From the NCBI RefSeq assembly GCF_963921235.1, contig NC_086102.1:88226001-88290000 (forward strand): a stretch of DNA of 64,000 bases, in the 5' to 3' direction. The DNA is from Mobula hypostoma. Lineage: Eukaryota. Positions 21,025 to 64,000 of this stretch are shown one piece after another. Made by a program: the position numbers and the translations under genes. A model generated the notes under the pieces. The model searched no databases, was not told the DNA's origin, and worked only from the letters and a program-made list of their open reading frames with translations. The first letter of the stretch is position 1, and the number at the start of each line of letters is the position of its first letter.

Positions 21025-22700
21025 AAATACACCATGGAAAATTTCATCACGGCTGGGACAGGAACTGGTCTGCCCAAGACCACAAGAAACCGTAGATTGT
21101 TATGGACATAGCACTACACAACACAGAAACCAACCTCTCTATAGATTGTCTGCACTCCTTGTTAGCTCAGTAAAGACTCTATCCACACAGGGCGTTCTCT
21201 CTTCTAACCACTCCTCTTGAGGACAAGACACAGAAGTCCGAAAGCACATACCAACAGGCTCAAGCACAGCTTCTATGCTATTATAACACTACTGAACAAT
21301 TCCCTGGTACTGGTCGATTCTATGGACACTTAACCTTTTCATGGCCTTGTTTATATCTTTTTATCTGCCTGCACTGTACTCTCTGTCACCGTATCACTGT
21401 ACTCTCTCTGTAACTGCGTCACTGGACTCTCTGTAACTGTATCATTGTACTCTCTGTAACAGTATCACTAGACTCTCTGTAACTGTATCACTATACTCTC
21501 ACTTTAACCATATCACTGTACTCTCTGGAACTGTATCACTGTACTCTCACTGTAACTGTATCACTGTACTCTCTGTCACTATCACTGTACTCTCTCTGTA
21601 ACTGTATCACTGTACTCTCACTGTAACTGTATCACTGTACTCTCTGTCACTATCACTGTACTCTCTCTGTAACTGTATCACTGGACTCTCTGTAACTGTA
21701 TCACTGTACTCTCTGTAACTGTATCACTGTACTCTCTAACAGTATCACTGGACTCTCTGTAACTGTATCACTGTACTCTCTGTACCTGTATCATTGTACT
21801 CTCTCTGTAACTGTATCACTGTACTCTCTGTCACTGTATCACTGCACTCTCTCTAACAGTATCACTGTACTCTCTGTCACTGTATCACTGTACTCTCTCT
21901 GTAATTGTATCACTGCATTCTTTCTGTAACCGTATCACTGTACTCTCTGTAACTGTATCACTGCATTCTTTCTGTAACAGTATCACTGGACTCTCTGTAA
22001 CTGTATCACTGTACTCTCTCTGTAACTATCACTGTACTCTCTATCACTGTATCACTGTACTCTCTATCACTGTATCACTGTACTCTCTGTAACTGTGTCA
22101 CTGTACTCTGCATGTAATGGTATCACTGTACTTTGTAGCTGTATCACTGTACTCTCTCTGTAACTGTATCACTGTACTCTCTCTGTAACTATCACTGTAC
22201 TCTCTGTCACTGTATCACTGTACTCTCTGTAACTGTGTCACTGTACTCTGCATGTAATGGTATCACTGTACTTTGTAACTGTATCACTGCACTCTCCCTG
22301 TAACTGTATCACACTATGCTCTGTAACTGTATGACTGTACTCCCTGTAACTGTATGACTGTACTCTCTGTATCTGTATCATTGTACTCTCTCTGTATGAC
22401 TGTACTCTCTGTAACTGTATCATTGTACTCTCTCTGTATCACTGCACTCTCCCTGTAACTGTATCACACTATGCTCTGTAACTGTATGACTGTACTCCCT
22501 GTAACTGTATCACTGTACTCTCTGTATGACTGTACTCTCTATATCACTGTACTCTCTCTGTATCACTGTACTCTCTCTGTATCACTGTACTCTCTGTATC
22601 ACTGTATTCTGCTCTCCATTATTGTTCACCTTGTACTACCTCAGTGCATGTTGTAATGAGCTGATCTGTATGGACAGGAAGCTGTACCTTGGTACAGGTG
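21025..22700 (+). mobile_element. Rex1/Babar 3' fragment whose 3' UTR hosts a tandem array
   Basis: Degenerate C-terminal coding sequence (aagcacataccaacaggctcaagcacagcttct) before the array; UTR continuation after it is homologous to the reverse complement of ~2820-2880. Confidence 0.65.
21372..22608. repeat. Minisatellite, ~23-26 bp unit (CTGTATCACTGTACTCTCTGTAA), roughly 50 copies
   Basis: Direct tandem repetition visible. Confidence 0.95.
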
Positions 22701-27542: not shown

Positions 27543-29144
27543 GGACGGACTCGGTACGTCGATTGGTATCTGTGGGGGGGGGGACTCGGTACGTCGATCG
27601 GTATCTGTGGTGGGGGGGACTCGGTACGTCGATTGGTATCTGTGGGGGGGACTCGGTATCGATTGGTATCTGTGGAGGGGACTCGGTACGTCGATCGGTA
27701 TCTGTGGACGGACTCGGTACGTCGATCGGTATCTGTGGGGGGGACTCGGTATGTCGATCGGTATCTGTGGGGGGGACTCGGTATGTCGATCGGTATCTGT
27801 GGACGGACTCGGTACGTCGATCGGTATCTGTATGGGGGGGGGACTCGGTACGTCGATCGGTATCTGTGGGGGGGACTCGGTACGTGGATCTGTATCTGTG
27901 GGGGGGACTCGGTACGTCGATCGGTATCTGTGGGGGGGACTCGGTACGTCGATCGGTATCTGTGGGGGGGGGGACTCGGTACGTCGATCGGTATCTGTGG
28001 GGGGGGACTCGGTACGTCGATCGGTATCTGTGTGGGGGGGACTCGGTACGTCGATCGGTATCTGTGGGTGGGGGACTCGGTACGTCGATCGGTATCTGTG
28101 GGGGGGACTCGGTATGTCGATCGGTATCTGTGGGGGGAGACTCGGTACGTCGATCAGTATCTGTCGGGGGGGGGACTCGGTACGTCGATCGGTATCTGTG
28201 GATGGACTCGGTACGTCGATCGGTATCTGTGGGGAGACTCGGTACATCGATCGGTATCTGTGGGGGGACTCGGTACGTCGATCGGTGTCTGTGGGGGGGA
28301 CTCGGTATGTCGATCGGTATTTGTGGATGGACTCGGTACGTCGATCGGTGTCTGTGGGGGGACTCGGTACGTCGATCGGTATCTGTGGGGGGGGACTCGG
28401 TACGTCGATCGGTATCTGTGGACGGACTCGGTACGTCGATCGGTATCTGTGGGGGGGACTCGGTACGTCGATCGGTATCTGTGGGGGGGACTCGGTACGT
28501 CGATCGGTATCTGTGGGGAGACTCGGTACGTCGATCGGTATCTGTGGGGGGACTCGGTACGTCGATCGGTGTCTTGGGGGGGACTCGGTATGTCGATCGG
28601 TATTTGTGGATGGACTCGGTACGTCGATCGGTGTCTGTGGGGGGACTCGGTACGTCGATCGGTATCTGTGGGGGGGGACTCGGTACGTCGATCGGTATCT
28701 GTGGACGGACTCGGTACGTCGATCGGTATCTGTGGGGGGGACTCGGTACGTCGATCGGTATCTGTGGGGGGGACTCGTTACGTCGATCGGTATCTGTGGA
28801 CGGACTCGGTACGTCGATTGGTATCTGTGGACGGACTCGGTACGTCGATCGGTATCTGTGGGGGGGACTCGTTACGTCGATCGGTATCTGTGGATGGACT
28901 CGGTACGTCGATTGGTATCTGTGGACGGACTCGGTACGTCGATCGGTATCTGTGGGGGGGACTCGGTACGTCGATCGGTATCTGTGGGGGGGACTCGTTA
29001 CGTCGATCAGTATCTGTGGATGGACTCGGTATGTCGATTGGTATCTGTGGACGGACTCGGTACGTCGATCGGTATCTTGGGGGGGACTCGGTACGTCGAT
29101 CGGTATCTGTGGGGGGGACTCGGTATGTCGATCGGTATCTGTGG
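27543..29144. repeat. CpG-rich minisatellite, ~30-35 bp unit (G5-10)ACTCGGTACGTCGATCGGTATCTGT, roughly 50 copies
   Basis: Direct tandem repetition; variable G run or GGACGG/GGATGG linker. Confidence 0.97.
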
Positions 29145-30771
29145 GAGGAAAGGAATTGTTGGCACTTCAGTTCAAAGCCAAGTATCAGTATCAGTCCTGT
29201 GGCAGGGTTTCAGCCTGAAACATTGACAATTGCTTTGCTTCCATTGTTGCTACGCGACCTGCTGAGTTTCTTCAGCAGATAATTTGTTGGTCGAGAATTC
29301 ATCTATCCCAACCTTAGGAATGATCAAAAATCTGCTTCATCTGTCCTTTATGGGGCAGGTGGGGGGCCACACAAAAAGTTGACAGTTCCTTTCCTCCCAC
29401 AGTTGCAGCTCGACCTCCTGAGTTTCCCCAGCAGTTTGTTGAATCAGATTTCAGCGTCTGATCTGCAGTTTTTCATGTTTTCAAGAAGTTCATCTTAGCT
29501 CTTTCTCAAATGGGTGATACCTTAGTGTTAAACAGTAACCCCGGTTCTCTATTTTGAACAAAGGAAACAGCACATCATGACTGTGCAGGAGATCTGGCAC
29601 CCTTTTTACACTAATCCCACATTGCCACCAGCTGTCCCCATACTCTCCCACTCGCCTACATACTAGGGTCAAATAACCTAACAGTTAACCTAGCAATCTG
29701 CACATTTTTGGAATGTGGAAGGAAGCCAGAACACACTAAGGAGAGCGTGCAAACTCCTCACGAACAACCTTCGAGGTCAGGATTGAAGCTTGGGTTGAAA
29801 CATCCTCTACACGTCCACCCTGTCCAGGGGTCCCCTTGGTTAATGGTAGGGCTCCATGGCATTAAAAGATTGGAAACGCCCGACCCTGTAAAAAGCCATC
29901 AGGATCTTATATGTTGCAATGAAGTCCCCGCTCATTACTCTAAGCTTTGGTAAATGCAAGCCTACGTTGACAAATCTTCCCTCACCAGACAACCCATCCA
30001 CTGCCGTTATGAGGCTGTTGTTTGGAATAATTAATATGTGTAGTTACTGTTACCTTCTACAGGGAAGACATTTGTCAGATCTGCAAGAAATCACCAAAGT
30101 TATGCCAGAAATTAGATGCAATATACAAAGAAAGGCTGAAACAGAGAAGGGTGACGAGCAATCTGGTCCAATTTCCAGACTATGGGCGACGTTGATGGGT
30201 TCACAGAAGAATCTGGGAATAAGGGCGACTGGAAGAACGAACAGAGAAATTGGAACAAATAGTTTGCACATTGGGTGTTATTACAAGAAAGAATGCTCAA
30301 CCACAAGTAACAATTGAGACAAAGATTAGAACTAACAGAATTTAAAAGGAAATTAGATGCGTTTTGGATAAGGAAAATTGTAAAAGGAAATGTAATTATA
30401 GTGATTGCATTTAATGGTCAGCAGGGCCGCATGCACTGCCTACATGGTTTCAATGATTCCCACAGCTGATAATGTGAATGTGTACGAGCTGCTGAATGCC
30501 TCATCCTCCAGCCATACTAACTGGCAAACTTGGACAAGTTTATCGGTCATTCCCAATCATTCAGTAGGCAGAATGGGAAGCCCAGCTTGTCTCAAGGTCG
30601 CACTGGAGGCTTCCTGCTCCACTGTCAGCCTGGAACTCGCCATAAATCAGAAGTTTCTATATTTGCGTTCCAATCAAGCAGCAAGACCAGCAGTCCCCCG
30701 CAGGACTGAGGAAGTCCCTCATATTTTAAATCCCCATTTCCTAAATAATTGTTCATCCAATCTCTACCATT

Positions 30772-30971
30772 TGTTGTGTTCTTATATTTATACGTACCAT
30801 GAGTTAACAATAAAGAGTCATATTCTGGAAGAATTAGAACTTTTATTTACAGCAACAAAACCAAACCACATTTTTACCAAGCTATGTTCCAGATCATTCT
30901 AACATTTCTGCACATGCTCAGAACTTTCTCCAATCACGTTCTTACACGTCATTACACGTGATATCACCACA
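30772..30971 (-). repeat. 3' LTR
   Basis: Direct repeat of 33216-33415 with about 11 substitutions counted by eye; AATAAA on the - strand at 30842-30847; PPT adjacent at 30972-30984. Confidence 0.95.
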
Positions 30972-31029
30972 TCTTCCCTTCCTTAAAAAGAAAAACAATT
31001 AGCAACATTAACCAGAGCAAATGCATAAT

Positions 31030-31262
31030 TTAACATGTTTCTATCAGTCTCTCTGGGGGTTTACGAACACGAGTAGACCTTCTAAGTGGTTCACACAGTT
31101 CTTGTGTTTCATTGTTATTTCCATGTTTTGTCTGGTCTGCATCAATTAACTGAAACTCTGAAGTTGGCTCTTTCTTGAGGTCTTTGCGATTTCTTCTTAA
31201 CATTGTTCCTTCTTCTGTTTGGACCATGTAAGATCTGGGTTGTACTTCTTCAAGTACTGTAG
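31030..31262 (-). pseudogene. Gypsy integrase C-terminal remnant
   Basis: ATVLEEVQPRSYMVQTEEGTMLRRNRKDL...LRRSTRVRKPPERLIETC*, a typical Mag-type pol ending. Confidence 0.85.
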
Positions 31263-31911
31263 CTTTCTTAATTCCTTCACTTCCATTTGTAATGAACATA
31301 GAACATAGAAATCTACAGCACATTACAGGCCCTTCAGCCCACAATGTTGTGCTGACCATGTAATCTACTCTAGAAACTGTCTAGAATTACCCTAGCACAT
31401 AGCCCTCTATTTTTCTAAGTGTCATTGAGTCTAGCCTCTGAAAGGGGAGGGTGAACAGCCAGAAGTCATGGTACACATTGGTACCAACAACAAAAGTAGG
31501 AAAAGGTATGAGGTCCTGAAGAGCACATATAGGTAGTTAGGCAGAAAGCTAAAAATACAGAAAATATGAATCATCTTTTCTTCATCTAATTCATTCATTA
31601 ACAGTGTAATCTCTTTTTTTATGTTGAGGCTTCATCATTTCAATAAAACTTCTCAATTCCTTCACTTGTGCTTTCACTTCTTCAGCTGGATCCTGATTCT
31701 TGTCACTCTTTGGCTTCAGATCAGTATTGTACTGTACCGGCAAGTTTGGCCTCTGTCCTCCTGCAGAAGTGAGATTGTGATGGAATGCATGGCCCATTGA
31801 TGCATGTGTGTTACTTCCAGAGGGCAAAATTGCAACTCCTGGTTTTGGTGGCAATGATTTGTCAGATGCTGGTAAGAAAGGGATGGGTCTGGGAGCTTTC
31901 TTTATGACTTC
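31261..31911 (-). pseudogene. SH3KBP1: Captured, apparently processed fragment of the SH3KBP1 (CIN85) C-terminus, split by a CR1 insertion at 31296-31562
   Basis: Reconstructs as ...ASDKSLPPKPG...KPK...AEEVKAQVKELRSFIEMMKPQHKK/EITLLMNELDEEKMIHI|SLQMEV/EGIKKA versus recalled human VSDNKASLPPKPG...KPK...[53 protein letters not shown]. Confidence 0.85.
31296..31562. mobile_element. Short CR1 insertion: 3' end (- strand) joined to an inverted ORF1 piece (+ strand)
   Basis: 31296-31420 matches the CR1 3' ends at 33935 and 37761 (aacatagaacatagaa...); ~31437-31555 reads LKGEGEQPEVMVHIGTN (ORF1 esterase-like, compare 15610-15710). Confidence 0.8.
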
Positions 31912-33104
31912 ATACTCTTTCATCAAGTCACTGTATTCTGACTCTGTCACTGTCACTAAGACTCTTTTCACCAAATTCAGTCTCTCACAGGCAGATGGAT
32001 CCAGTATTGACTGTACATTCTTTGGCACCACCACAAATGAAAGTGTGTGCACAATATTTTTGTGTGATACTTTTGCCACATGTGTTCCTTTAACTGGAAT
32101 GTCTGCACCTGAATAACCAGTCACTTTTATATTTGTCTGATGTAACTTTGGTCTTGGCTTTAATGCATTAAACTCAGATTCTGCAAGAACATTTACTTGT
32201 GCTCCAGTATGAAGTTTAAACAGAATATTGTTTTGGTTAAATTGCAATGGAATAGTCCAGTCATTCTTACTTTGTTTGTTTTCACAAAGCACATCTATAT
32301 AAAACTCCTCAAGTTCATTTTCAAGCACTGCATTTACTTGTTTTATTTTCTTTCTACTTCTGCAACAGCGTGAAAGATGATTACTCTTACCACAGTCGTT
32401 GCACATTTTCCCATACGCTGGACACTGTTTTGGTCGATGCTGCCGCCCACAGTAATCAGATAACTTTTTTCTCTCAGATGACGTCTTGCTCTCTGTCGGT
32501 TTTGTTGTCATTTTATTATTATTTCTAATATGTTTGTGCTTTTCCACAGCGTCTACGTGGCAGTTTTTAATGAAAAGTTCTTTAGCCTGTGACATCATTG
32601 TCTCCAACGCTTTGCAAAGCATCAAGGCTTTTTCCAAGTTGAAATCTTGTTCTCTTAACAGTCTTTCTCTCAGACCATTATCCCGAATGCCACAAACAAT
32701 TCTGTCTTTAATGACAGAGTCTGTCAGTTCTCCAAACTCACATGTTTTACTATGGTGTCTCAACTCCGTAACATATCGATCAATTGCTTCAGCAGCTCTT
32801 TGTGCAGGTGTAGAAAGTTTATGCCTTTCGTATGTCAAATTACACTTCGGTATACAAAATGCTTCAAATTTGTCCATTTCCGATTCCAATTTTAAACCAT
32901 CTCCATCTTCAAAAATAAAATGATTATATACCTCAATTGCATCGTCACCTATTACGTGGAGTGGAAGCGCAGCTTTTGTTTTTTCCGGTTTTCCATCAGC
33001 TTCGATCGCTGACAAATAAAATTCAAAACGTTGCTTGAATTTTCTCCAGTTTAGGCTACGTTCCCAGTCAGCTGAAGTGTTGGCGGAGGTTGCAAACCTT
33101 TCAT
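31912..33104 (-). pseudogene. Gypsy gag and aspartic protease (disrupted)
   Basis: MKGLQPPPTLQLTGNVA / NWRKFKQRFEFYL (frameshift ~33052); IKDRIVCGI; two zinc knuckles ..YCGRQH..CPAYGKMCNDCGKSNH..C; protease FKLHTGAQVNVL (catalytic D to H). Confidence 0.92.
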
Positions 33105-33202
33105 TTTTAAAACTGTTAGCAAACACCAAACAGTTCGAACTCTTTTTGCTTCGATTATCTTTGCTTCTTCTGTGTTAGCTAACATATTATTCTTCCAGAC
33201 CG

Positions 33203-33215
33203 ACTTCTGACACCA
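33203..33215 (-). promoter_or_regulatory. Primer binding site, complementary to the 3' end of tRNA-Leu(CAA)
   Basis: TGGTGTCAGAAGT immediately inside the 5' LTR. Confidence 0.8.
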
Positions 33216-33415
33216 TGTTGTGTTCTTATATTTATACGTACCGTGGGTTAACAATAGAGAATCATATTTTGGAAGAATTAGAACTTTTACTTACAGCAAC
33301 AAAACCAAACCACGTTTTTACCAAGCCATGTTCCAGATCATTCTAACATTTCTGCTCATGCTCAGAACTCTCTCCAATCACGTTCTTACACGTCATTGCA
33401 CGTGATATCACCACA
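33216..33415 (-). repeat. 5' LTR
   Basis: Direct repeat of 30772-30971; followed by the PBS on the - strand. Confidence 0.95.
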
Positions 33416-33934
33416 CCATTTGAACTGCACAATAACAACTAAAATTGTCAACAACAAGCACACCAATAAAAACTTCAACAAAATCTTTCTGTTCCTGGTT
33501 CAAACCTAACTTCTTTCTGAAGTTATCAGCACTTTGCCTAAAAAAGCATTTACATTCTAACAAACGACAGTAGAGCGGACACTCCTTGGCTAATCACAGA
33601 ATTTGGTAAGAGAACTAAACGTGGAAATAGAGACACATCTCCAAGGCTGAGTGCACATGATGAACCCTCGTCAAACTGTACACCAGCTTCACCCTCCACA
33701 GAGTTTTTGGAGCAATCTCTGCTATTACGTTGGCGAGGCCGTGATTGTGTAATTCCAATGTCAGTCAGACTTGCTGATCATGTTCCATTTTGTGGCCCAA
33801 ATTCAACTGAACAGTTACTTCGCGCATCTCTTGTCTTCCAACTTGAACTTCTGGTGACATTTACCTGCTGGCAGAGATTGATGTACTTTTATTTTTGGTA
33901 GATTCTGTTTTTTTTCTGCTCCTGAAAAGTTCTT

Positions 33935-36900
33935 AACATAGAACATAGAATAGTACAGCACAGTACAGGCCCTTCGGCCCACAATGTTGTGCCGACCCTC
34001 AAACCCTGCCTGCCATATAAGCCCCCACCTTAGATTCCTCCATATACTTGTCTAGTAGTCTCTTAAACTTCACTAGTGTAGCTGCCTCCACCACTGACTC
34101 AGGCAGTGCATTCCATGCACCAACCACTCCCTGAGTAAAAAACCTTCCTCTAATATCCCCCTTGAACTTCCCACCCCTTACCTTAAAGCCATGTCCTCTT
34201 GTATTGAGCAGTGGTGCCCTGAGGAAGAGGCGCTGGCTATCCACTCTATCTATTCCTCTTATTATTTTGTACACCTCTATCATGTCTCCTCTCATCCTCC
34301 TTCTCTCCAAAGAGTAAAGCCCTAGCTCCCTTAATCTCTGATCATAATGCATACTTTCTAAACCAGGCAGCATCCTGGTAAATCTCCTCTGTACCCTTTC
34401 CAATGCTTCCACATCCTTCCTATAGTGAGGTGACCAGAACTGGACACAATACTCCAAGTGTGCCCTAACCAGAGTTTTATAGAGCTGCATCATTACATCG
34501 CGACTCTTAAACTCTATCCCTCGACTTATGAAAGCTACCACCCCATAAGCTTTCTTAACTACCCTATCCACCTGTGAGGCAACTTTCAGGGATCTGTGGA
34601 CATGTACCCTGAGATCCCTCTGCTCCTCCACACTACCAAGTATCCTGCCATTTACTTTGTACTCTGCCTTGGAGTTTGTCCTTCCAAAGTGTACCACCTC
34701 AGACTTCTCCGGGTTGAACTCCATCTGCCACTTCTCAGCCCACTTCTGCATCCTATCAATGTCTCTCTGCAATCTTTGACAATCCTCTACACTATCTACA
34801 ACACCACCAACCTTTGTGTCATCTGCAAACTTGCCAACCCACTCTTCTACCCCCACATCCAGGTCGTTAATAAAAATCACGAAAAGTAGAGGTCCCAGAA
34901 CAGATCCTTGTGGGACACCACTAGTCACAATCCTCCAATCTGAATGTACTCCCTCCACCACCACCCTCTGCCTTCTGCAGGCAAGCCAATTCTGAATCCA
35001 CCTGGCCAAACTTCCCTGGATCCCATGCCTTCTAACTTTCTGAATAAGCCTACCGTGTGGAACCTTGTCAAATGCCTTACTAAAATCCATATAGATCACA
35101 TCCACTGCACTACCCTCATCTATATGCCTGGTCACCTCCTCAAAGAACTCTATCAGGCTTGTTAGACACGATCTGCCCTTCACAAAGCCAAGCTGACTGT
35201 CCCTGAGCAGACCATGATTCTCTAAATGCCTATAGATCCTATCTCTAAGAATCTTTTCCAACAGCTTTCCCACCACAGACGTAAGGCTCACTGTCTATAA
35301 TTACCCGGACTATCCCTACTACCTTTTTTGAACAAGGGAACAACATTCGCCTCCCTCCAATCCTCCGGTACCATTCCCGTGGACAACGAGGACATAAAGA
35401 TCCTAGCCAGAGGCTCAGCAATCTCTTCTCTCGCCTCGTGGAGCAGCCGGGGGAATATTCTGTCAGGCCCCGGGGACTTATCTGTCCTAATGTATTTTAA
35501 CAACTCCAACACCTCTTCTCCCTTAATATCAGCATGCTCCAGAACATCAACCTCACTCATATTGTCCTCACCATCACCAAGTTCCCTCTCATTGGTGAAT
35601 ACCGAAGAGAAGTATTCATTGAGGGCCTCGCTCACTTCCACAGCCTCCAGGCACATCTCCCCACCTTTATCTCTAATCGGTCCTACCTTCACTCCTGTCA
35701 TCCTTTTTTTCTTCACATAATTGAAGAATGCCTTGGGGTTTTCCTTTACCCTACTCGCCAAGGCCTTCTCATGCCCCCTTCTTGCTCTTCTCAGCCTCTT
35801 CTTAAGCTCCTTTCTTGCTTCCCTGTATTCCTCAATAGACCCATCTGATCCTTGCTTCCTAAACCTCATGTATGCTGCCTTCTTCCTCCTGACTAGATTT
35901 TCCACCTCACTTGTCACCCATGTTTCCTTCACCCTACCATTCTTTATCTTCCTCACCGGGACAAACTTATCCCTTACATCCTGCAAGAGATCTCTAAACA
36001 TCCACCACATGTCCATAGTACATTTCCCTGCAAAAACATCATCCCAATTCACACCCGCAAGTTCTATCCTTATAGCCTCATAATTTACCTTTCCCCAATT
36101 AAAAACTTTCCTGTCCTCTTTGATTCTTTCCTTTTCCATGATAATTATAAGGGCCAGGGAGCGGTGGTCACTGTCCCCCAGATGCTCACCCACTGAGAGA
36201 TCTGTGACCTGCCCCGGTTCATTACCTAGTACTAGATCTAATATGGCATTCCCCCTGGTTGGCCTGTCCACATACTGTGACAGGAATCCATCCTGGACAC
36301 ACTTAACAAATTCTGCCCCATCCAAACCCTTGGAACTAATCAGGTGCCAATCAATATTAGGGAAGTTAAAGTCACCCATGATAACAACCCTGTTATTTTT
36401 GCAGCTTTCTAAAATCTGCCTTCCAATCTGCTCCTGTGTATCTCTGCTGCTACCAGGGGGCCTATAGAATACCCCCAGTAGAGTAACTGCTCCCTTCCTG
36501 TTCCTGACTTCCACCCATATTGACTCAAAAGAGGATCCTGCTACATTACCCACCCTTTCTATAGCTGTAATAGTATCCCTGACCAGTAATGCCACCCCTC
36601 CTCCCCTTTTTCTGCCCTCTCTATCCCTTTTAAAGCACTGAAATCCAGGAATATTGAGAATCCATTCCTGCCCTGGTGCCAGCCAAGTCTCTGTAATGGC
36701 CTCTACATCATAATTCCATGTATGTATCCAAGCTCTCAGTTCATCACCTTTGTTCCTGATGCTTCTTGTATTGAGGTACACACATTTCAGCCCTTCTACC
36801 TTACTGTCTTTACACCGTTTATTCTGCTTCTCTTTCCTCAAAGCCTCTCTGTATGTTAGATCTGGCTTTACTCCATGCACTTCTTTCACTGCTCTATCGC

Positions 36901-37160
36901 TCTGGGTCCCATCCCCCTTGCAAATTAGTTTAAACCCTCCCGAACCATGCTAGCAAACCTACCTGCAAGGATATTGCTCCCCCTCGAGCTCAGGTGCAAC
37001 CCATCCAATCTGTACAGGTCCCACCTTCCCCAGAAGAGATCCCAATGATCCAAAAACCTAAAACCCTGCTCCCTGCACCAACTCCTCAGCCACGCATTCA
37101 ACTGCCATCTCCTCCAATTCTTACCATCACTGTCATGTAGCACTGGCAGCAATCCTGAGA
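33935..37160 (-). mobile_element. Young CR1 LINE: ORF1 3' part and near-complete ORF2 (APE endonuclease + RT) with one frameshift at ~35290
   Basis: ORFs 35288..36889 (YLNTRSIRNK, ITETW, MGDFN, GDSDH) and 33999..35291 (DFSKAFDKVPH, GVPQGSVLGP, FADDTK); (TTCTATG)n tail; ORF1 piece 36925..37152. Confidence 0.97.
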
Positions 37161-44990: not shown

Positions 44991-45145
44991 GTCAACGGGG
45001 TCCCTCTGAGTGATAAGAAAGGTCAACGGGGTCCCTCTGAGTGATGAGAAAGGTCAACGGGGTCCCTCTGAGTGATGAGAAAGGTCAACGGGGTCCCTCT
45101 GAGTGATGAGAAAGGTCAACGGGGTCCCTCTGAGTGATGAGAAAG
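44991..45145. repeat. 31-bp tandem repeat, 5 copies (GTCAACGGGGTCCCTCTGAGTGATGAGAAAG)
   Basis: Four identical copies plus one with a single mismatch. Confidence 0.97.
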
Positions 45146-45614
45146 GCACTCTAAGGAGCTGCACTGGGAATGATGCACAATGGCTGTCATGTGGAGCTTC
45201 CAATTGAGGTTGATCCAAGTGGAAACATGGTGCCTGAATCCGGATGCAACCTGATGTGTGCTCAACCCTGAGGAAAGGTCAGGAGCCCTGTGATGTGTAT
45301 TTGGATCAGGAGCTGGTGACTGGGACTGTCCACTTGTAAATCAAGTGCTCCCCAAATCAGTAGTGCTCACACAACCCGTGCAAAAAGGCAATATGGTTCA
45401 CAATTACTGCCTTTATAAGGTATAGAAGCATGGTAGACCACTCAGCCTATCCTGCCTCCTTCACCATTCAATAAGATCATGGTTGATCTTTCACCTCATC
45501 ACCACGCTCCTGCAGGAAGCCCACATCTCTCAATTCCAAACATCTAACAATCTCCAGGATATACTCAGTAGCTAAGTCTCCACTGCCCTTTTGGACAGAA
45601 AAGTGTCCCACAGA

Positions 45615-46830: not shown

Positions 46831-47385
46831 ACCATTGGTTCTAGATGCCCCAACAAGGTGAAACATTGGTTCTAGATGCCCCAGCAAGGGGAACCATTGG
46901 TTCTAGATGCCACAGCAAGGGGAAACATTGGTTCTAGATGCTCCAGCAATGGGAACCATTGGTTCTAGATGACACAGCAAGGGGAACGATTGGTTCTAGA
47001 TGCCCCAGCAAGGGGAAACATTGGTTCTAGATGCCCCAGCAAGGAGTACCATTGGTTCTAGATGCCCCAGCAAGGGGAACCATTGGTTCTAGATGACCCA
47101 GCAAGGGGAAACATTGGTTCTAGATACCCCAGCAAGGAGTACCATTGGTTCTAGATGCCCCAGCAAGGGGAACCATTGGTTCTAGATGCCCCAGCGAGGG
47201 GAACCATTGGTTCTAGAGGCCCCAGCGAGGGGAACCATTGGTTCTAGATGCCCCAGCGAGGGGAACCATTGGTTCTAGATGCCCCAGCAAAGAGAATCAT
47301 TGGTTCTAGATGCCCCAGCAAGGGGAACCATTGGTTCTAGATGCCCCAGCAATGGGAACCATTGGCTGTAGACGTCCCAACAAGG
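46831..47385. repeat. Minisatellite, 30-31 bp unit (ACCATTGGTTCTAGATGCCCCAGCAAGGGGA), ~18 copies, within an old CR1 fragment
   Basis: Tandem repetition; left flank gtgaagaaatttctactc...ttgagaatgtgac is antisense CR1 ORF2 3' sequence. Confidence 0.93.
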
Positions 47386-47836
47386 GGCACCGACTCCATC
47401 GACAGCAAGAATATCCTCCTTCAGGATCACCAGAATCCTATACAAGTGGAATATGACTCTTGCAATAGAGTCAATGTGCCACTTGCCCTCCTCCTGAATG
47501 TTATCTTTTGTTGATCTGTATGCAGGGTGAGCCAGGTTCCTCTGAACACCATCTTTCAATGCCTCTCCATTCTATTTCTTCAATTAAAGTAGATGAGCAC
47601 AATATTTTGACTTCAAATTCCACACCACCCACTCACTTATCTTAGTCTTAATCCTCTTTCTCCACTCCACCCATATTATTGCCCAGACATGCATCATCAG
47701 CAACTTGGATTTATTTATACTAGATCTCCTCATCCTGCTCACTGGTGAGAGCTGGAGAGATGTCAATAAGCCCTGCTTCATCCCTAGTTATAGTCCCAGC
47801 TCAAGATAGCCCCATTTATTCCTACTAGCTGGATTC

Positions 47837-55965: not shown

Positions 55966-55975
55966 GAATTGCCTG

Positions 55976-58900
55976 AAGATGGAGAGTGGGGTGGATTAGG
56001 AAGGTGGACACTGGGGTAGTGTGGAAGGTGGACAATAGGTAGAATGAGGAAACTGGACACTGGTGTAGATTGAGGAAGCTGGACAGCAGTGTAGACTGAG
56101 GAAGATGGACAGTGGGGTTGAATGAGGAAGATGGACTGTGGGGTAGACTGAGGAAGATGGACAGTGGGATGGGATGAGAAAGAAGGACAGTGGGGTAGGA
56201 TGAGGAAGATTGACAGTGGGGTAGAATGAGGAAGATGGACAGTGGGGCAGGTTGAGGAAGATGGTCAGTGGTGTTAAATGAGGAAACTGGACTGTGGGGT
56301 AGAATGAGGAAGATGGATAGTGGGGTAGAATGAGGAAGATGGACTGTGGCATAGAATGGGGAAGCTAGACTGTGGCGTAGAATGAGGAGACTGGACAGAG
56401 GGAAAGAATGAGGAAGATGGACATTGGGGTAGAATGAGGAAGATGGACTGTGGGGTGGAATGAGGAAGATGGACAGTGGGGTGGAATGAGGAAGATGGAA
56501 AGCTGGCTAGAAATGAGGAAGATGGACAGTGGGGTAGAATGAGGATATTGGACAGTGGGGTAGAATGTAGAAGATGGACAGTGGTGTAGAATGAGGAAGA
56601 TGGACAGTGGGGCAGAATGAGGATATTGGACAGTGGGGTAGAATGAGGTAGATGGATAGTGGGGTAGAATGAGGAACATGGACAGCGGGGTAGACTGAGG
56701 AAGATGGACAGTGGGGTAGAATAGGTAATATGGACAGTGGTGTAGAATGGGGAAGGTGGACAGTGGGGTAGAGTGAAGAAGATGGACAGTGGGGCAGAAT
56801 GAGGAAGATGGACAGTGGTGTAGGATGAGGAAACTGCATTTTGGGGTAGAATGAGGAAGATAGACAGCGGAGTAGAATGAGGAGACTGGACAGTGGGTTA
56901 GAATGAGGAAACTGGACAGGGGGGTAGAATGAGGAAGATGGACATTTGTGTAGAATGGGGAAGACGGACAGTGGGGCAGAATGCAGACAATGGATAGCGG
57001 GATAGAATGAGGAATCTGGACAGCAGGATAGAATGAAGAAGATGGACAGTGGGGTAGGATGAGGAAGCTGGACAGTGGTGTAAAATGAGGAAGAAGGACA
57101 GTAGGGTGGAATGAGGAGGATGGAAAGTGGTGTAGAATGAGGAAGAGGGACAGTGGGGTAGAATGAGAAAGATGGACAGTGGGGTTGGATGAGGAAGATG
57201 GATAGTGGGATAGAATGGGGAAGATGGAAAGCGGGGTAGAATGAGGAAGATGGATCGTGGGGCAGAATGAGGAAGATGGACAGTGAGGTAGAACAAGGAA
57301 GATGGACAGTGGGGTAGGATGAGGAAGATTGACAGTGGGGTAGAATGAGGAAAATGAACAGTGGGGTAGAATGAGGAAGATGGACAGTGGAGTAGGTTGA
57401 GGAAGATGGACAGTGGGGTAGAATGAGAAAAATGAACAGTGGGGTGGAAAGAGAAAGCTGGACTGTGGCATAGAATGGGGAAGCTGGACTGTGGCGTAGA
57501 ATGAGGAGACTGGACAGCGGGAAAGAATGAAGAAGATGGACATTGGGGTAGAATGAGGAAGATGGACTGTGGGTTAGAATGAGGAAGATGGACTGTGGGG
57601 TAGAATGAGGAAGATGGATAGTGGGTTAGAATGAGGAAGAAGGGCAGTGGGGTGGAATGAGGAGGATGGAAAGTGGTGTAGAATGAGGAAGAGGGACAGT
57701 AGGGTAGAATGAGGAAGATGGACCGTGGGGTAGAATGAGGAAGATGGACAGTGGGGTAGACTGAGGAAGATGGACAGTGGGGTAGAATGGGTAATATGGA
57801 CAGTGGTGTAGAATGGGGAAGGTGGACAGTGGGGCTGAATGAGGTAGATGGACAGTAGGGTAGAATGAGGAAGATGGATAGTGGGGCAGAATGAGGAAGA
57901 TGGACAGTGGTGTAGAATGAGGAAGTTTGACAGTTTGGTAGTCTGAGGAAGATGGACAGTGGGGTGAATGAGGAAGATGGATATTGGGGTAGAATGAGGA
58001 ACATGGACAGTGGCGTAGACAGGAAGATGGACAGTGGTGTTGAATGTGTAATATGGACAGTGGTGTAGAATGGGGAAGGCAGACAGTAGTGCAGAATGAA
58101 GAAGATGGACAGTGTGGCTGAATGAGGAAGATGGACAGCGGGGTAGAATGAGGATACTGGACAGCTAGGTAGAATGAGGAAGATGGACCGTGGGGCAAAA
58201 TGAGGAAGATGTACAGTGGGGTAGAATGAAGAAGATGGTCAGCAGGGTAAAATGGGGAAGATGGACAGTGGTGTAGGATGATGAAACTGCACTTTGGGGT
58301 AGAATGAGGAAGAAGGACAGTGGGGCAGAATGAGGAAGATAGACAGCGGAGTAGAATGAGGAGACTGGACAATGGGGTAGAATGAGGAAGATGGACCGTG
58401 GGGCAAAATGAGGAAGATGGACAGTCGGGCAGAATGAGAAAGATGGATAATGGGTTAGAATGAGGAAGTTGGACTGTGGTGTAGAATGTAGTAGACGGAC
58501 AGTGGTGTAGAATGAGGAAGATGGACAGTAGGGTAAAATGGGGAAGATGGACAGTGGGATAGGATGAGGAAACTGCACTTTGGGGTAGAATGAGGAAGAA
58601 GGACAGTGGGGCAGATGAGGAAGATAGACAGTGGAGTAGAATGAGGAGACTGGACAGTGGGGTAGAATGAGGTAACTTGACTGTGGGGTAGAATGAGGAA
58701 AATGGACAGTGGGATAGAATGAGGAAGTTTGACAGTGTGGTAGACTGAGGAAGATGGACAGTGGGGTTGAATGAGGAAGATGGACTATGGGGTAGAATGA
58801 GGAAGATGGACTCGGGTGGAATGAGGAAGATGGACTGTGGGGTCGACTGAGGAAGATGGACAGTGGGATGGAATGAGGAAGATGGACAGTGGGATGGAAT

Positions 58901-60545
58901 GAGGAAGATGGACAGTGGGATGGAATGAGGAAAATGGGCATCGGGTTAGAATGTATAAGATGAACAGTGGATATGATGAGGAAGCTTGACAGTCGGGGAG
59001 AATGAGGAAACTGGACAGAGGGGTAGAATATGGAAGATGGACAGAGGGGTAGAATGAGGAGGATGGACTGTGGGGTAGAATGTAGAAGATGGACAGTGCG
59101 GAAGAATGAGGAAAATGGACAGTGGGGAAGAATGAGGAAGATGGAGAGTTGTGTAGAACGAGGAAACTGCACAGCAGGGTAGAATGAGGACGATGGATAG
59201 TGGGGTAGGATGAGAAAGATGGACAGTGGTATAGACTGAGGAAGATAGACCATGGGGTAGAATGAGGAACATGGATAGTGGGGTAGAATCTAGAAGATGG
59301 CCAGTGGGGTAGAATGAGGAAGATGGACAGTGGGGTAGAAGATTTACAGTGGGGAAGAATGAGGAAGATGGACAGTGGGGTAGAATGAGGAAAATGGATA
59401 GTGGCTAGAATGAGGAAACTGGACAGTGAGTTTGAATGAGGAAGATCGACTGTGGTGTAGAACGAGGAAGATGGACAGTGGTGTAGAATGAGGAAGATGG
59501 ATAGTGGCGTAGAATAAGGAAGATGGACAGTGGTGTAGGACGAGGAAAATGCACAGTGGCGTAGCATGAGGAAGATTGACTGGGTTAGAATGAAGAGGAT
59601 GGTCAGTGGGGTAGAATGAGGAAGATGGACAATGGGTTAGAACAAGGAAACTGGTCAGTGGGGTAGAATGAGGAAGATGGACCGTGGTGTAGAATGAGGA
59701 AGATGGACTGTGGGGTAGAATGAGGAAGCTGGACAGTTGGGTACAATGTAGAAGATGGACAGTGGGGTAGAACGAGGAAACTGGACAGTGGTGTAGTATG
59801 AGGAAGCTGGACTGCGGGGCAGAATGAGGAAGATGGACAGTGGTGTAGAATGAGGAAGATGGACTGTGGGGCAGAATGAGGAAGATGGACAGTGGGGTAG
59901 AATGATGAAGATGGACAGTGGTGTAGTATGAGGAAGCTGGACTGCGGGGCAGAATGAGGAAGATGGACAGTGGTGTAGAATGAGGAAGTTTGACAGTTTG
60001 GTAGTCTGAGGAAGATGGACAGTGGGGTAGAATGAGGAAGATGGACAGTGGGGTATAATGAGGAAGATGGATAGTGGGGCAGACTGAGGAAGATGGACTG
60101 TGGGGTAGAATAAGGAAGATGGAGAGTGGGGTGGAAGTAGGAAGGTGGACAGTGGGGTAGTGTGTGGAAGATAGACAATAGGTAGAACGAGGAAACTGGA
60201 CAATGATGTAGATTGAAGAAGCTGGACAGCAGTGTAGAATGAGGAAGATGGACAGTGGGAAAGAATGAGGAAATTTGACAGTGTGGTAGACTGAGGAAGA
60301 TGGACAGTGGGATTGAATGAGCAAGGTGGACAGTGGGGTAGAGTGAGGAAGATGGACAGTGGGCTAAAATGAGAAAGATGGACTGTGGGGTGGAATGAGG
60401 AAGATGGACTGTGGGGTAGGCTGAGGAAGATGGACAGTGGGGTGGAATGAGGAAGATGGACAATGGTTAGAATGAGGAAAATGGACGATGGCTAGAATGC
60501 GGAAACTGGAAAGTGTGGTAGAATGAGGAAGATGGAAAGTGGGGT
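55976..60545. repeat. Purine-rich satellite, 26-bp unit (GAATGAGGAAGATGGACAGTGGGGTA), roughly 175 copies
   Basis: Direct tandem repetition; - strand ORFs show a 26-aa (three-unit) period. Confidence 0.97.
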
Positions 60546-63500
60546 TTCCCTCTGCGTTGTTCCCTCTACTTCTTATGAGGCCTCTATTTCTTTAATTCTT
60601 AAAAAAGATAAAGATCCTACTGACTGTGCTTCATATAGACCTAGTTCATTACTGAATGTTGACGCTAAGATTTTGTCAAAGATAATGGCCAATCGGTTGG
60701 AGAATATTTTGGGGAAAATTATTTGTAAAGATCAAACAGGCTTTATAAAGGGTCGCTATTCCTTTTCAAGTGTCCGGAGACCGCTTAACATTATATATTC
60801 ATCCTCTTCTAATATTCCACAATGTGTTGTATCTTTGGATGCTGAAAACGTGTTCGACCGAGTCGAATGGAAACATTTATTCAATGTTTTAGAGAAATTT
60901 GGCTTTGGTGTTAATTTTAATAATTGGATTAAAATGATATATAAAGCCCCTATTGCTACTGTTGTTACTAACAATTGTACGTCTCCTTTTTTTCAGCTTT
61001 CACAGGGGACGAGGCAAGGCTGTCCATTAAGTCCTTTGTTGTTTAATTTAATATTAGAACCCCTTGCTATTGCTCTTCGTGAGTCTAAAAATATCCATGG
61101 GATCTTTGTGAATGAGACCATGAATAAGGTCTCTCTTTATGTTGATGATTTATTGGTTTATATATCTAACCCTGACGAATCCATTCCTGCCCTGCTAAAA
61201 TTATTTAATGAATTTGGAGGGTTTTCAGGATATAAAATTAATTTTAGTAAAAGTGAATTATTTCCTTTAAATGATTCTGTTTCTATATATGATAATACTC
61301 CTTTTAAAGTTTCAGACTCTTTTATATATTTAGGTATTATAATTACTAAAAAATATAAGGATCTTTATAAAGCTAATTTTGTTCCCTTAGTAGACTCAAT
61401 GAAGTATTTATTTAGTAGATGGAGTCCACTTACATTTTCAATTGTTGGCCGTATTCATATAGTTAAAATGATGATTCTACCGAAATTTTTATATTTATTT
61501 CAGAATATTCCTGTTTTTTTGACTAGGAAGTTTTTTGATTGGATTGATTCTATTATTTTATCCTTTATTTGGAATAATAAAAGACCAAGAATTAGTAAAC
61601 GTCATTTATAAAAATTGAAAAAGGATGGAGGTCTTGCTTTGCCTAATTTTAGAATGTATTATTGGGCTGTTAATCTGCGATATATGTCTTTTTGGTTATA
61701 CTGGGTTGATAAGAGTGATCGGCCAATTTGGGTAGACCTGGAACTAAAAGTTGTAAAACAGTTTTATTTAACCTCGTTATTGGGGGCTCCTTTACCTATG
61801 CAATTAGGTAAAGTTGTTAATTTAAACCTATATCCTGTGATTAAGTATTCTTTACAAATTTGGCTCCAGTTCCGCAATTTTTTTAATCTTAAAAAATTTA
61901 AACTTTGTAGTTTAATTTACCGAAATTACTTTTTTAAGCCTTCTTTGAGTGATCCAATTTTTCTGCTTTGGGAAAATAAAGGTATTAATTCTTTTTTGGA
62001 TAAATTTAAAGACGATTCATTGATGTCCTTTGAACAATTAATTGATAAATATTCTCTTTCATACTCACACTTTCTGCAATAGCTTCAAGTTAGATATTTT
62101 TTACAAAAATATTTAAGCAATTTCCCTTACATATTGGAGGCTGACCTGTTAGATACTATTATGAGTATGAATCCTTTGATTAAGGGTTCTATTGGAAGAA
62201 TTTATAATTTACTATTACAATGGGATAAGCGTCCTTTGTCTAAGATTAAACAGGATTGGGAAAAGGAACTTAATTTGACTTTTATGACGGAGGATTGGAT
62301 GCGGATATTGAAGTTGGTTAACTCTTCTTCAATTTGTGCTAGCCATTCATTGATTCAATTTAAAATTGTACATCGTTATCATTTGACAAAGGAGAGACTT
62401 TCTAAAATCTTTCCTATTGTTGATCGTCATTGTGATAGATGTAAAACTGAGATAGCTACACTGACGCATATGTTTTGGTCTTGTTCTATATTCGAACAGT
62501 TCTGGAAGTCGGTTTTCTCAACAATTTCTAAAGCACTTAAAATTAATTTACAACCTAATAAATTAACTGTGCTTTTTGGAATAGTTCCTCAAAATTTTCA
62601 TGGTATTTTTGTGTCTGACCAACATGTTATTGCATTTGTTACATTGATAGCTAGGAGGGCCAATTTGTTGAAGTGGAAGGATACATCAGCTCCCACTTTG
62701 TCACAATGGTTCTCTCAAGTGATGCTATGTCTTAGTTTGGAGAAAATTGGAAGTCGAACCTTTAAACCTTTATTTGATTTTGAGAAAAGATGTGGCTCAT
62801 TTGCTTGTTATTATCATTTGAGTTAATTGATATAATTTTTCCACGATCTAATTGTAAAATTTTTAGTATATTTTCTTTTCTTGCTGGTGGTTTGATGTTT
62901 ATTTTTAGAAGCTTTTTGTATGACACATGTGTAGCCCCCCCCGCCGGCCACCCTCAGGGTCGCTTGGCTCGCTGTCGTCTAGGGAAACAGCCTCGGCCCC
63001 GCCAAACTGGATAATTCGTTTGTGTGGATGCTGTGTGAGATACTCCACCCCGCCCAAATAACAGACAATACACCAGATGCAATTAAATGATTTACAGTTT
63101 ATAGATATTACTGGAACTATATAATTAAAAGAGAATAAAATATAAAAGGAAAATAAAAGGCGCCACACTTATCAAAGTTCAATCTCTTCGTGCACAAAAC
63201 AGTTGGAGCTCACGAACCTTCTTCTTCACCCTGCGACCCCCTCGGGCCACCTCGACCGGCCGCCTGGGACCAACAACGGTGGTCGACCAGACGTTCCACA
63301 CGAGTCCGTCTCCGTATCCTCGCCGAACGTCCCGCTCGGGGTCCGACCCCGTTAGGGACTCACAGCACCTCGTCCATCCTCTGTCTCGCTCTCCCGCCTT
63401 CTGCCCCAAAATCCCGTGCATACAGTATCTTCAAATACACCAAAACCATAACAACTATCCCAATTGGTTAATAGCACTCTCTTATCACACTCTAAAGCAA

Positions 63501-63826: not shown

Positions 63827-63834
63827 CGAGGATG

Positions 63835-64000
63835 AATGAGGAAGATGGACAGTGGTGTAGAATGGGGAAGGTGGACAGTGGGGCAGAATGAGGATACTGG
63901 ACAGTGGGGTAGACTGAGGAAGATGGACAGTGGGGTAGAATGAGGAAGATGGATAGTGGGGTAGAATGAGGAAGATGGACAGTGGGGTAGACTGAGGAAG
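63835..64000. repeat. 26-bp satellite resumes and runs off the window end
   Basis: Same unit as 55976-60545. Confidence 0.97.

Follow-up and report, generated by a model that had tools for sequence, protein, structure and literature searches.

The window, by which I mean the whole analysed stretch of 64,000 nucleotides of Mobula hypostoma DNA, carries a Gypsy LTR element on its minus strand at 30772-33415 (Table 1). Structural hallmarks of Ty3/Gypsy elements (LTR ends, 5-bp duplication, primer site, purine tract) are all present, and the two LTRs, each 200 nt long with TG..CA ends, differ at 11 positions. This confirms an earlier note on this DNA, made from its letters alone, which had described a bounded Gypsy element with LTRs, CCATT flanks, primer-binding site and purine tract, and had counted about 11 LTR differences over 200 nt. 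The primer-binding site is presumably of the tRNA-Leu type. The protease (32008-32250) is recognised by the Pfam model gag-asp_proteas only weakly, with an E of 4e-4 that falls short of the curated cut-off.

Table 1. Parts of the minus-strand element, in window positions, with the sequences to which they were compared.
Feature	Position	Strand	Comparison
Target-site duplication CCATT, left	30767..30771	none	
3' LTR, 200 nt	30772..30971	-	
Polypurine tract	30972..30984	-	
Parent-element integrase C-terminal tail through stop codon	31030..31261	-	79-97% to pol-bearing copies
Last SH3KBP1 exon, start; final 7 nt AGAAAGC common with parent integrase	31262..31286	-	host C18:80909830-80909855
End of SH3KBP1 exon c, past the later insertion	31287..31295	-	
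Later 267-nt insertion, without duplication	31296..31562	-	absent in 29/29 other copies
SH3KBP1 exon c (coiled coil)	31563..31617	-	host C18:80907729-80907784, 95%
SH3KBP1 exon b, whole (proline-rich linker and first half of coiled coil)	31619..31869	-	host C18:80906391-80906641, 96%
SH3KBP1 exon a, 3' part; 5' join to pol at 31911	31870..31911	-	host C18:80902169-80902210, 95%
Aspartic protease and protease-RT linker	31912..32250	-	78-91% to pol-bearing copies
gag with zinc knuckle, broken near start (~33050)	32251..33104	-	
Primer-binding site	33200..33215	-	
5' LTR, 200 nt	33216..33415	-	
Target-site duplication CCATT, right	33416..33420	none	

The copy in the window is a dead member of its family that was damaged later. 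A frameshift and a stop near 33050 disrupt its gag, its 527-aa open stretch excludes the gag start, two single-base frameshifts lie in the host-derived part, and a LINE has inserted into it. An intact frame and purifying selection at one orthologous locus, by which a domesticated retrogene is known, were not found, gag and host-derived part being broken in the window copy and constraint on the latter not shown.

The insertion is private to this copy. The earlier note had called it a CR1 in its entirety and had held that its removal restores continuity; the second point stands, all 29 other copies reading straight through, but the match to the tail of a common LINE is limited to the 3' 124 nt of the insert. 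That tail recurs at window 33935-33997, just behind an endonuclease-RT LINE. The latter (33935-36949, minus strand) is near-complete, with open stretches of 553 and 431 aa, the Pfam domains Exo_endo_phos and RVT_1, and a tail shared with the element's insert; I take both to be of the CR1 type. The 5' 143 nt of the insert (31420-31562, minus strand) have no match to the LINE tail and a single match of 71%, in copy L118 only. Elsewhere in the window a 26-bp minisatellite of about 177 copies and strong purine skew occupies 55975-60545 and 63834-64000, with a LINE RT fragment (60496-61609) between its arrays, and further minisatellites lie at 21372-22607 (23/71 bp), 27547-29145 (31/95), 44991-45146 (31) and 46831-47391 (31).

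The captured sequence

The host-derived part, hereafter the cargo, is spliced host mRNA. It is 383 nt long and consists of four joined SH3KBP1 exons, 95-96% identical to the host: the last 42 nt of one exon, the next two exons entire, and the 26 nt that open the last exon, ending four codons ahead of the host stop. The exons are joined exactly at GT/AG boundaries, and the three introns between them (4180, 1087 and 2037 nt) are missing. Across the family the cargo has just three fixed differences from the host gene, which lies on the same contig as the window, about 7.3 Mb distant, and whose two long terminal exons match P0002 at 98-100%. The earlier note had recognised the CIN85 (SH3KBP1) protein in the translation, and searches agree: the 105-residue P0001, which starts at 31911, has as its top named match Mobula hypostoma SH3KBP1, at 95% identity across 93% of the query, 15 of its 18 matches are cartilaginous-fish SH3KBP1-type proteins, and the best PDB matches of the cargo are the CIN85 coiled coil, 2n64/5abs.

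Could a LINE have made this sequence, as a processed pseudogene of SH3KBP1 within a Gypsy copy, trimmed by deletions at either end before amplification? LINEs do abound here, and the window copy itself contains one. Against this, the cargo shows no 3' UTR, poly(A) or target duplication of its own, and no intron sequence, poly(A) tail or own duplication was found on it in the 120 loci examined. It does not interrupt pol but replaces about 2.2-2.4 kb of it (the RT-RNase H-integrase core, compared with 19 parents), and it ends inside coding sequence at letters shared with the parent. The same pattern is, moreover, repeated for RABEP1 and SLU7, as described below. I regard a LINE origin as largely refuted and most improbable. 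Capture of an mRNA in place of the pol core, as the earlier note had proposed, is supported: three tests that might refute it, on the identity of the best match, on exon-exon junctions in the host gene and on a separate duplication or poly(A) around the cargo, were all run and none does so.

Parent element and joins

The parent was found by a protein search with a related protease-RT protein, a guessed integrase pattern having had no match. Pol-bearing parent copies have the same LTR, gag and protease as the hybrid, at 78-91% identity, and a pol in the order protease-RT-RNase H-integrase (Pfam protease and RVT_1, then RT_RNaseH, Integrase_H2C2 and rve), with the integrase tail about 2.4 kb past the protease in 19 of the 20 copies fetched. 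At the 3' join, host and parent have in common the 7-nt word AGAAAGC, which reads cAGAAAGCt in 16 of the 19 parents with an integrase tail and aAGAAAGCa in the host. The overlap that had been proposed from the window alone therefore exists, but its letters are not AAAGCT, the T belonging to the element only.

The commonest 5' join, found in 52 copies (18 that retain the RT start and 34 without most of it), falls within the RT start, where RT and SH3KBP1 both encode VIKK and 14 of 16 letters agree. Through this similar stretch the letters of the hybrid are those of the host, which is what reannealing to the element by a nascent minus strand copied from the mRNA would leave. At 31911 the window does have a 5' join, as had been claimed, and five copies have it, but it is a minority form with only 2-4 nt shared, most copies switching inside the RT start. 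A longer host piece is present in 15 copies. In the class L161-L180, 9-13 nt of filler stand in frame at the join of SH3KBP1 exon c to the integrase tail; the filler resembles an inverted copy of adjacent integrase sequence and is present in public runs too. Because nearly all copies share one 3' join, the simplest history would be a single capture with presumably later switches onto helper RNA.

Copies, spread and age

The 25-nt 3' join occurs at least 141 times (allowing at most two mismatches) and the parent form at least 273 times, while reversed controls gave 0. Gag/protease before the cargo and the integrase tail after it were found in 85 of 90 fetched SH3KBP1 loci, and complete copies are each flanked by their own, differing 5-bp duplications. 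The hybrid, which had been suspected of amplifying as a family, is indeed a non-autonomous LTR family, dispersed, with joins in common and separate target duplications. Segmental duplication has multiplied L018/L019/L026 and L150/L151/L159, and flanks are shared at 98-99.8% for L018/L019 and L150/L151/L159. Another Gypsy family, more distantly related (about 46% to P0020) and with open frames of more than 1000 aa, is apparently younger; its sites include G000:C91:460881-462326 and C40:75464430-75465899.

Mean within-copy LTR divergence is 7-11%, depending on hybrid class, and 8% in pol-bearing copies, a similarity which indicates that hybrids and helpers were active together. In other rays, a protein record of Hemitrygon akajei (P0004) runs through protease, RT start, cargo and integrase tail with both joins in one frame, and records of Hypanus and Hemitrygon carry the RABEP1 form. 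The family is thus older than the divergence between these ray families. Genes annotated in Hemitrygon and Hypanus as 'uncharacterized' or 'rab GTPase-binding effector protein 1-like' (P0004, P0018, P0019) are hybrid copies, not host paralogues. Among four public runs, three guessed to be RNA and one of uncertain kind, contigs bridge the 3' join in two and a subfamily-specific joint in three, though such contigs cannot show transcription.

Sister cargos and helpers

Sister subfamilies bear spliced pieces of RABEP1 and SLU7. A search with P0019 gave 159 matches, and the 30 loci that were fetched and examined hold two joined RABEP1 exons (Pfam Rabaptin). Most of the 30 have the SH3KBP1 coiled coil slotted into a RABEP1 exon at one AGTGGAA-like word, an insertion that cost no RABEP1 sequence, and in five the window-type SH3KBP1-integrase join, or a deleted version of that join, leads on to joined SLU7 exons. 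Among 30 loci chosen by DNA pattern, three are RABEP1-only hybrids (L187, L188 and L193). These have three distinct 5' joins, every one in frame, and L187 is without protease. Two other reduced kinds of copy were seen: L198 is a cargo-free deletion form with protease joined in frame to late integrase, and L195, L202 and L209 lack gag, their 5' LTR region being joined to integrase.

Three helper subfamilies have supplied the gag that accompanies the cargo. Three groups of a gag tree built from 112 real copies have pol-bearing and cargo copies interleaved, pol-bearing copies show 183 of the 211 common gag variants as well, and divergence among copies is 11-14% in gag against 5.5-5.8% in the cargo, all of which indicates that the cargo moved across helper backgrounds. 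Gag variants present in at least eight copies have an omega of 0.54 (P 0.0007, with the first 18 codons counted in the wrong frame). I considered this purifying selection as a sign of function in the hybrids and rejected it, since most of the variants occur in pol-bearing copies as well.

Reading frame

The gag-pol frame is kept in 16 of 17 shared rearrangements. Counted here, from a hand-compiled list, are rearrangements of at least 10 nt common to at least two independent copies, leaving out the segmental duplicates L019, L026, L151 and L159 and three joins fixed by an in-frame query. The lone out-of-frame case, carried by two copies, is a deletion of 10 nt close to where the integrase tail ends. 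Private indels of at least 10 nt are in frame in 17 of 54 cases, and single-copy joins in the DNA-pattern sample in four of five. Rows set aside were an artefact of the reference's private indel (a join that is in frame in 14 of 15 when another reference is used), a slip of 2 nt adjoining a join in four copies (three of them duplicates), a variant of the 27-nt deletion in two copies, and a 9-nt gag insertion that was likely inherited from a helper; 9-nt deletions and single-base indels were treated likewise.

It might be argued that no selection on frame is needed, and that in-frame joins come from the codon-phased similarity of A-rich coding sequence together with a few lucky founders. Chance matches among these sequences are in frame at a rate of 0.38 (at least 3 nt) to 0.52 (at least 8 nt), and those of at least 7 nt in 116 of 227 cases; frameshifting indels are also frequent among the copies. 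However, 16 of 17 gives P 0.00025 at a rate of 0.52 and P 0.0027 at 0.61, and certain joins with almost no shared letters, or with filler, are in frame all the same. Counting doubtful rows as out of frame raises P to 0.0037 for two of them and to 0.021 for four. An explanation without selection seems to me unlikely. The counts show statistically that hybrids which kept multiplying nearly always retained one frame from gag through cargo, and this excess among shared rearrangements is new here.

Single-base frameshift indels are common in the cargo: 26 of 62 copies have one in the last exon, and 29 of 115 at the junction of exons b and c. Tests for linkage of these to other variants found none (lowest P 0.017 among 260 tests and 0.004 among 272), and they may therefore have arisen more than once. 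The last-exon frameshift lies next to a near-repeat within the cargo, where mis-templating may produce it repeatedly; frameshifted masters may also have multiplied.

What, then, does the frame serve? One candidate is the cargo protein itself: by analogy, an in-frame host coiled coil behind Gag/protease could be an oligomerisation module that replaces the association of the polyprotein through RT/integrase, and such a module might help hybrid Gag to co-assemble with helper particles, in which case coiled-coil captures would be the ones to amplify. Internal deletions drop the RT remnant and the proline-rich linker and retain the start of the coil in every shared class, and what was transferred into RABEP1 is the coiled coil and nothing more, set within another coiled coil. 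Gag-protease of HIV-1 shows enhanced multimerisation and cleavage when protease is followed by a leucine zipper, although the construct also reduced particle yield, according to the part of that study drawn on here (PMC3291649). Retention of the coil is in part a matter of ascertainment, because all loci were found with cargo-containing queries, and there are further difficulties: one class truncates the coil, one RABEP1 copy is without protease, and one copy joins protease to the integrase tail in frame with no cargo at all.

Nor was amino-acid constraint on common cargo variants found once mutation type was corrected for, with 7 N:6 S (P 0.16) over the whole SH3KBP1 cargo, 6 N:3 S (omega about 1.1) in its coiled coil and 7 N:0 S in RABEP1, a comparison of low power because the cargo genealogy is star-like. 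A contrast between private and shared cargo variants in N/S (P 0.03) disappeared under the same correction. Use of the cargo protein is, on this evidence, a doubtful reading, as is the broader proposal that this ray Gypsy family repeatedly samples host mRNAs and that element-level selection favours Gag-protease frames running into a host coiled coil (SH3KBP1, RABEP1).

The reading I prefer, and to which I would give about an even chance, is that the frame is kept through a need acting in cis for translation to proceed almost to the 3' end of the RNA, and not for any amino-acid function of the cargo. Such a need might lie in RNA stability or in packaging coupled to translation. The absence of detected cargo constraint, the common frameshifts, and the existence of coil-truncated, protease-less and cargo-free forms are what lead me to place it there, and to hold both the oligomerisation module and the absence of selection improbable.

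Discussion

Taken as a whole, it is very probable that a Gypsy element captured spliced SH3KBP1 mRNA, was amplified in trans, swapped helpers and kept its frame. A Gypsy particle in the ray germ line would have packaged a spliced SH3KBP1 message. During minus-strand synthesis reverse transcriptase probably left the element in the integrase tail at the shared AGAAAGC, copied some 380-430 nt of the message and rejoined the element near the protease-RT boundary, steps whose products are the observed joins. Gag and protease stayed in the hybrid so formed, along with the LTRs, primer site and purine tract, and pol-bearing relatives copied it in trans to at least 141 places. Repeated co-packaging may have led to the swapping of front ends among helper subfamilies and to the trading of pieces with RABEP1 and SLU7 sister hybrids, exchanges whose products are likewise present in the genome.

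The capture mechanism, multi-gene chimeras and secondary amplification are already published. Tan et al. (2016, Genome Res 26:1663, PMC5131818) describe LTR-mediated retrocopies of animals in which a partial spliced mRNA replaces the internal ORF between LTRs, with microsimilarity at the joins. By the part of their account used here, the ray cargo belongs with these: it is a spliced segment in internal replacement, with microsimilarity at the switch points and no poly(A) or inner duplication. Both sets also have multi-gene chimeras and secondary non-autonomous retroposition. The median microsimilarity is 6 bp in their cases, and is 7 and 14 of 16 here. Their cases have one to few copies, compared with at least 141 in the ray family, which is further unlike them in being common to different ray families, in its nested cargo exchange and several helper gag subfamilies, and in having both cargo ends fused in frame to gag-pol. 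The frame considered in the same part of the paper is that of ORFs relative to the parental protein, with which they are reported to agree, and no test of frame at element-host joins is given there (PMC5131818).

In maize, Bs1 is an LTR element with exonic pieces of three host genes that was recopied after capture, but, as described in the sections used here, it has one to five copies against at least 141 in the ray, and one of its three pieces is out of frame (PMC5131818). Crocodilian CrocERV29 (KIT-ligand) and CrocERV31 (nectin3) are old, germ-line, multi-copy captures of host mRNA, and nectin3 in CrocERV31 replaces viral coding sequence as the ray cargo replaces pol; in the part of the report consulted they are true retroviruses with whole host ORFs and reported purifying selection (PMC4299795), whereas the ray case concerns fragments, carried by a Gypsy element, on which no amino-acid constraint could be demonstrated. 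I found no paper on the ray element and none combining SH3KBP1 with elasmobranchs, in a search that left most subscription journals and Repbase/Dfam entries outside. What sets the ray case apart is its scale, age, nested exchange, helper swapping and frame excess.

The capture chemistry that also gave rise to acutely transforming retroviruses has in this family a large and old germ-line record, whose copies and sub-forms are numerous enough to show in what order capture, helper swapping and cargo exchange took place. Its hybrids explain the mis-annotated 'RABEP1-like' and 'uncharacterized' stingray genes. The in-frame excess hints at a hidden rule on which hybrids can spread; it makes testable, simply by counting, the long-standing question of what an LTR element without pol must keep if it is to be copied, and it bears on whether captured pieces of host protein can serve the element. 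If the coiled-coil reading were true, gene capture would here benefit the parasite without oncogenesis.
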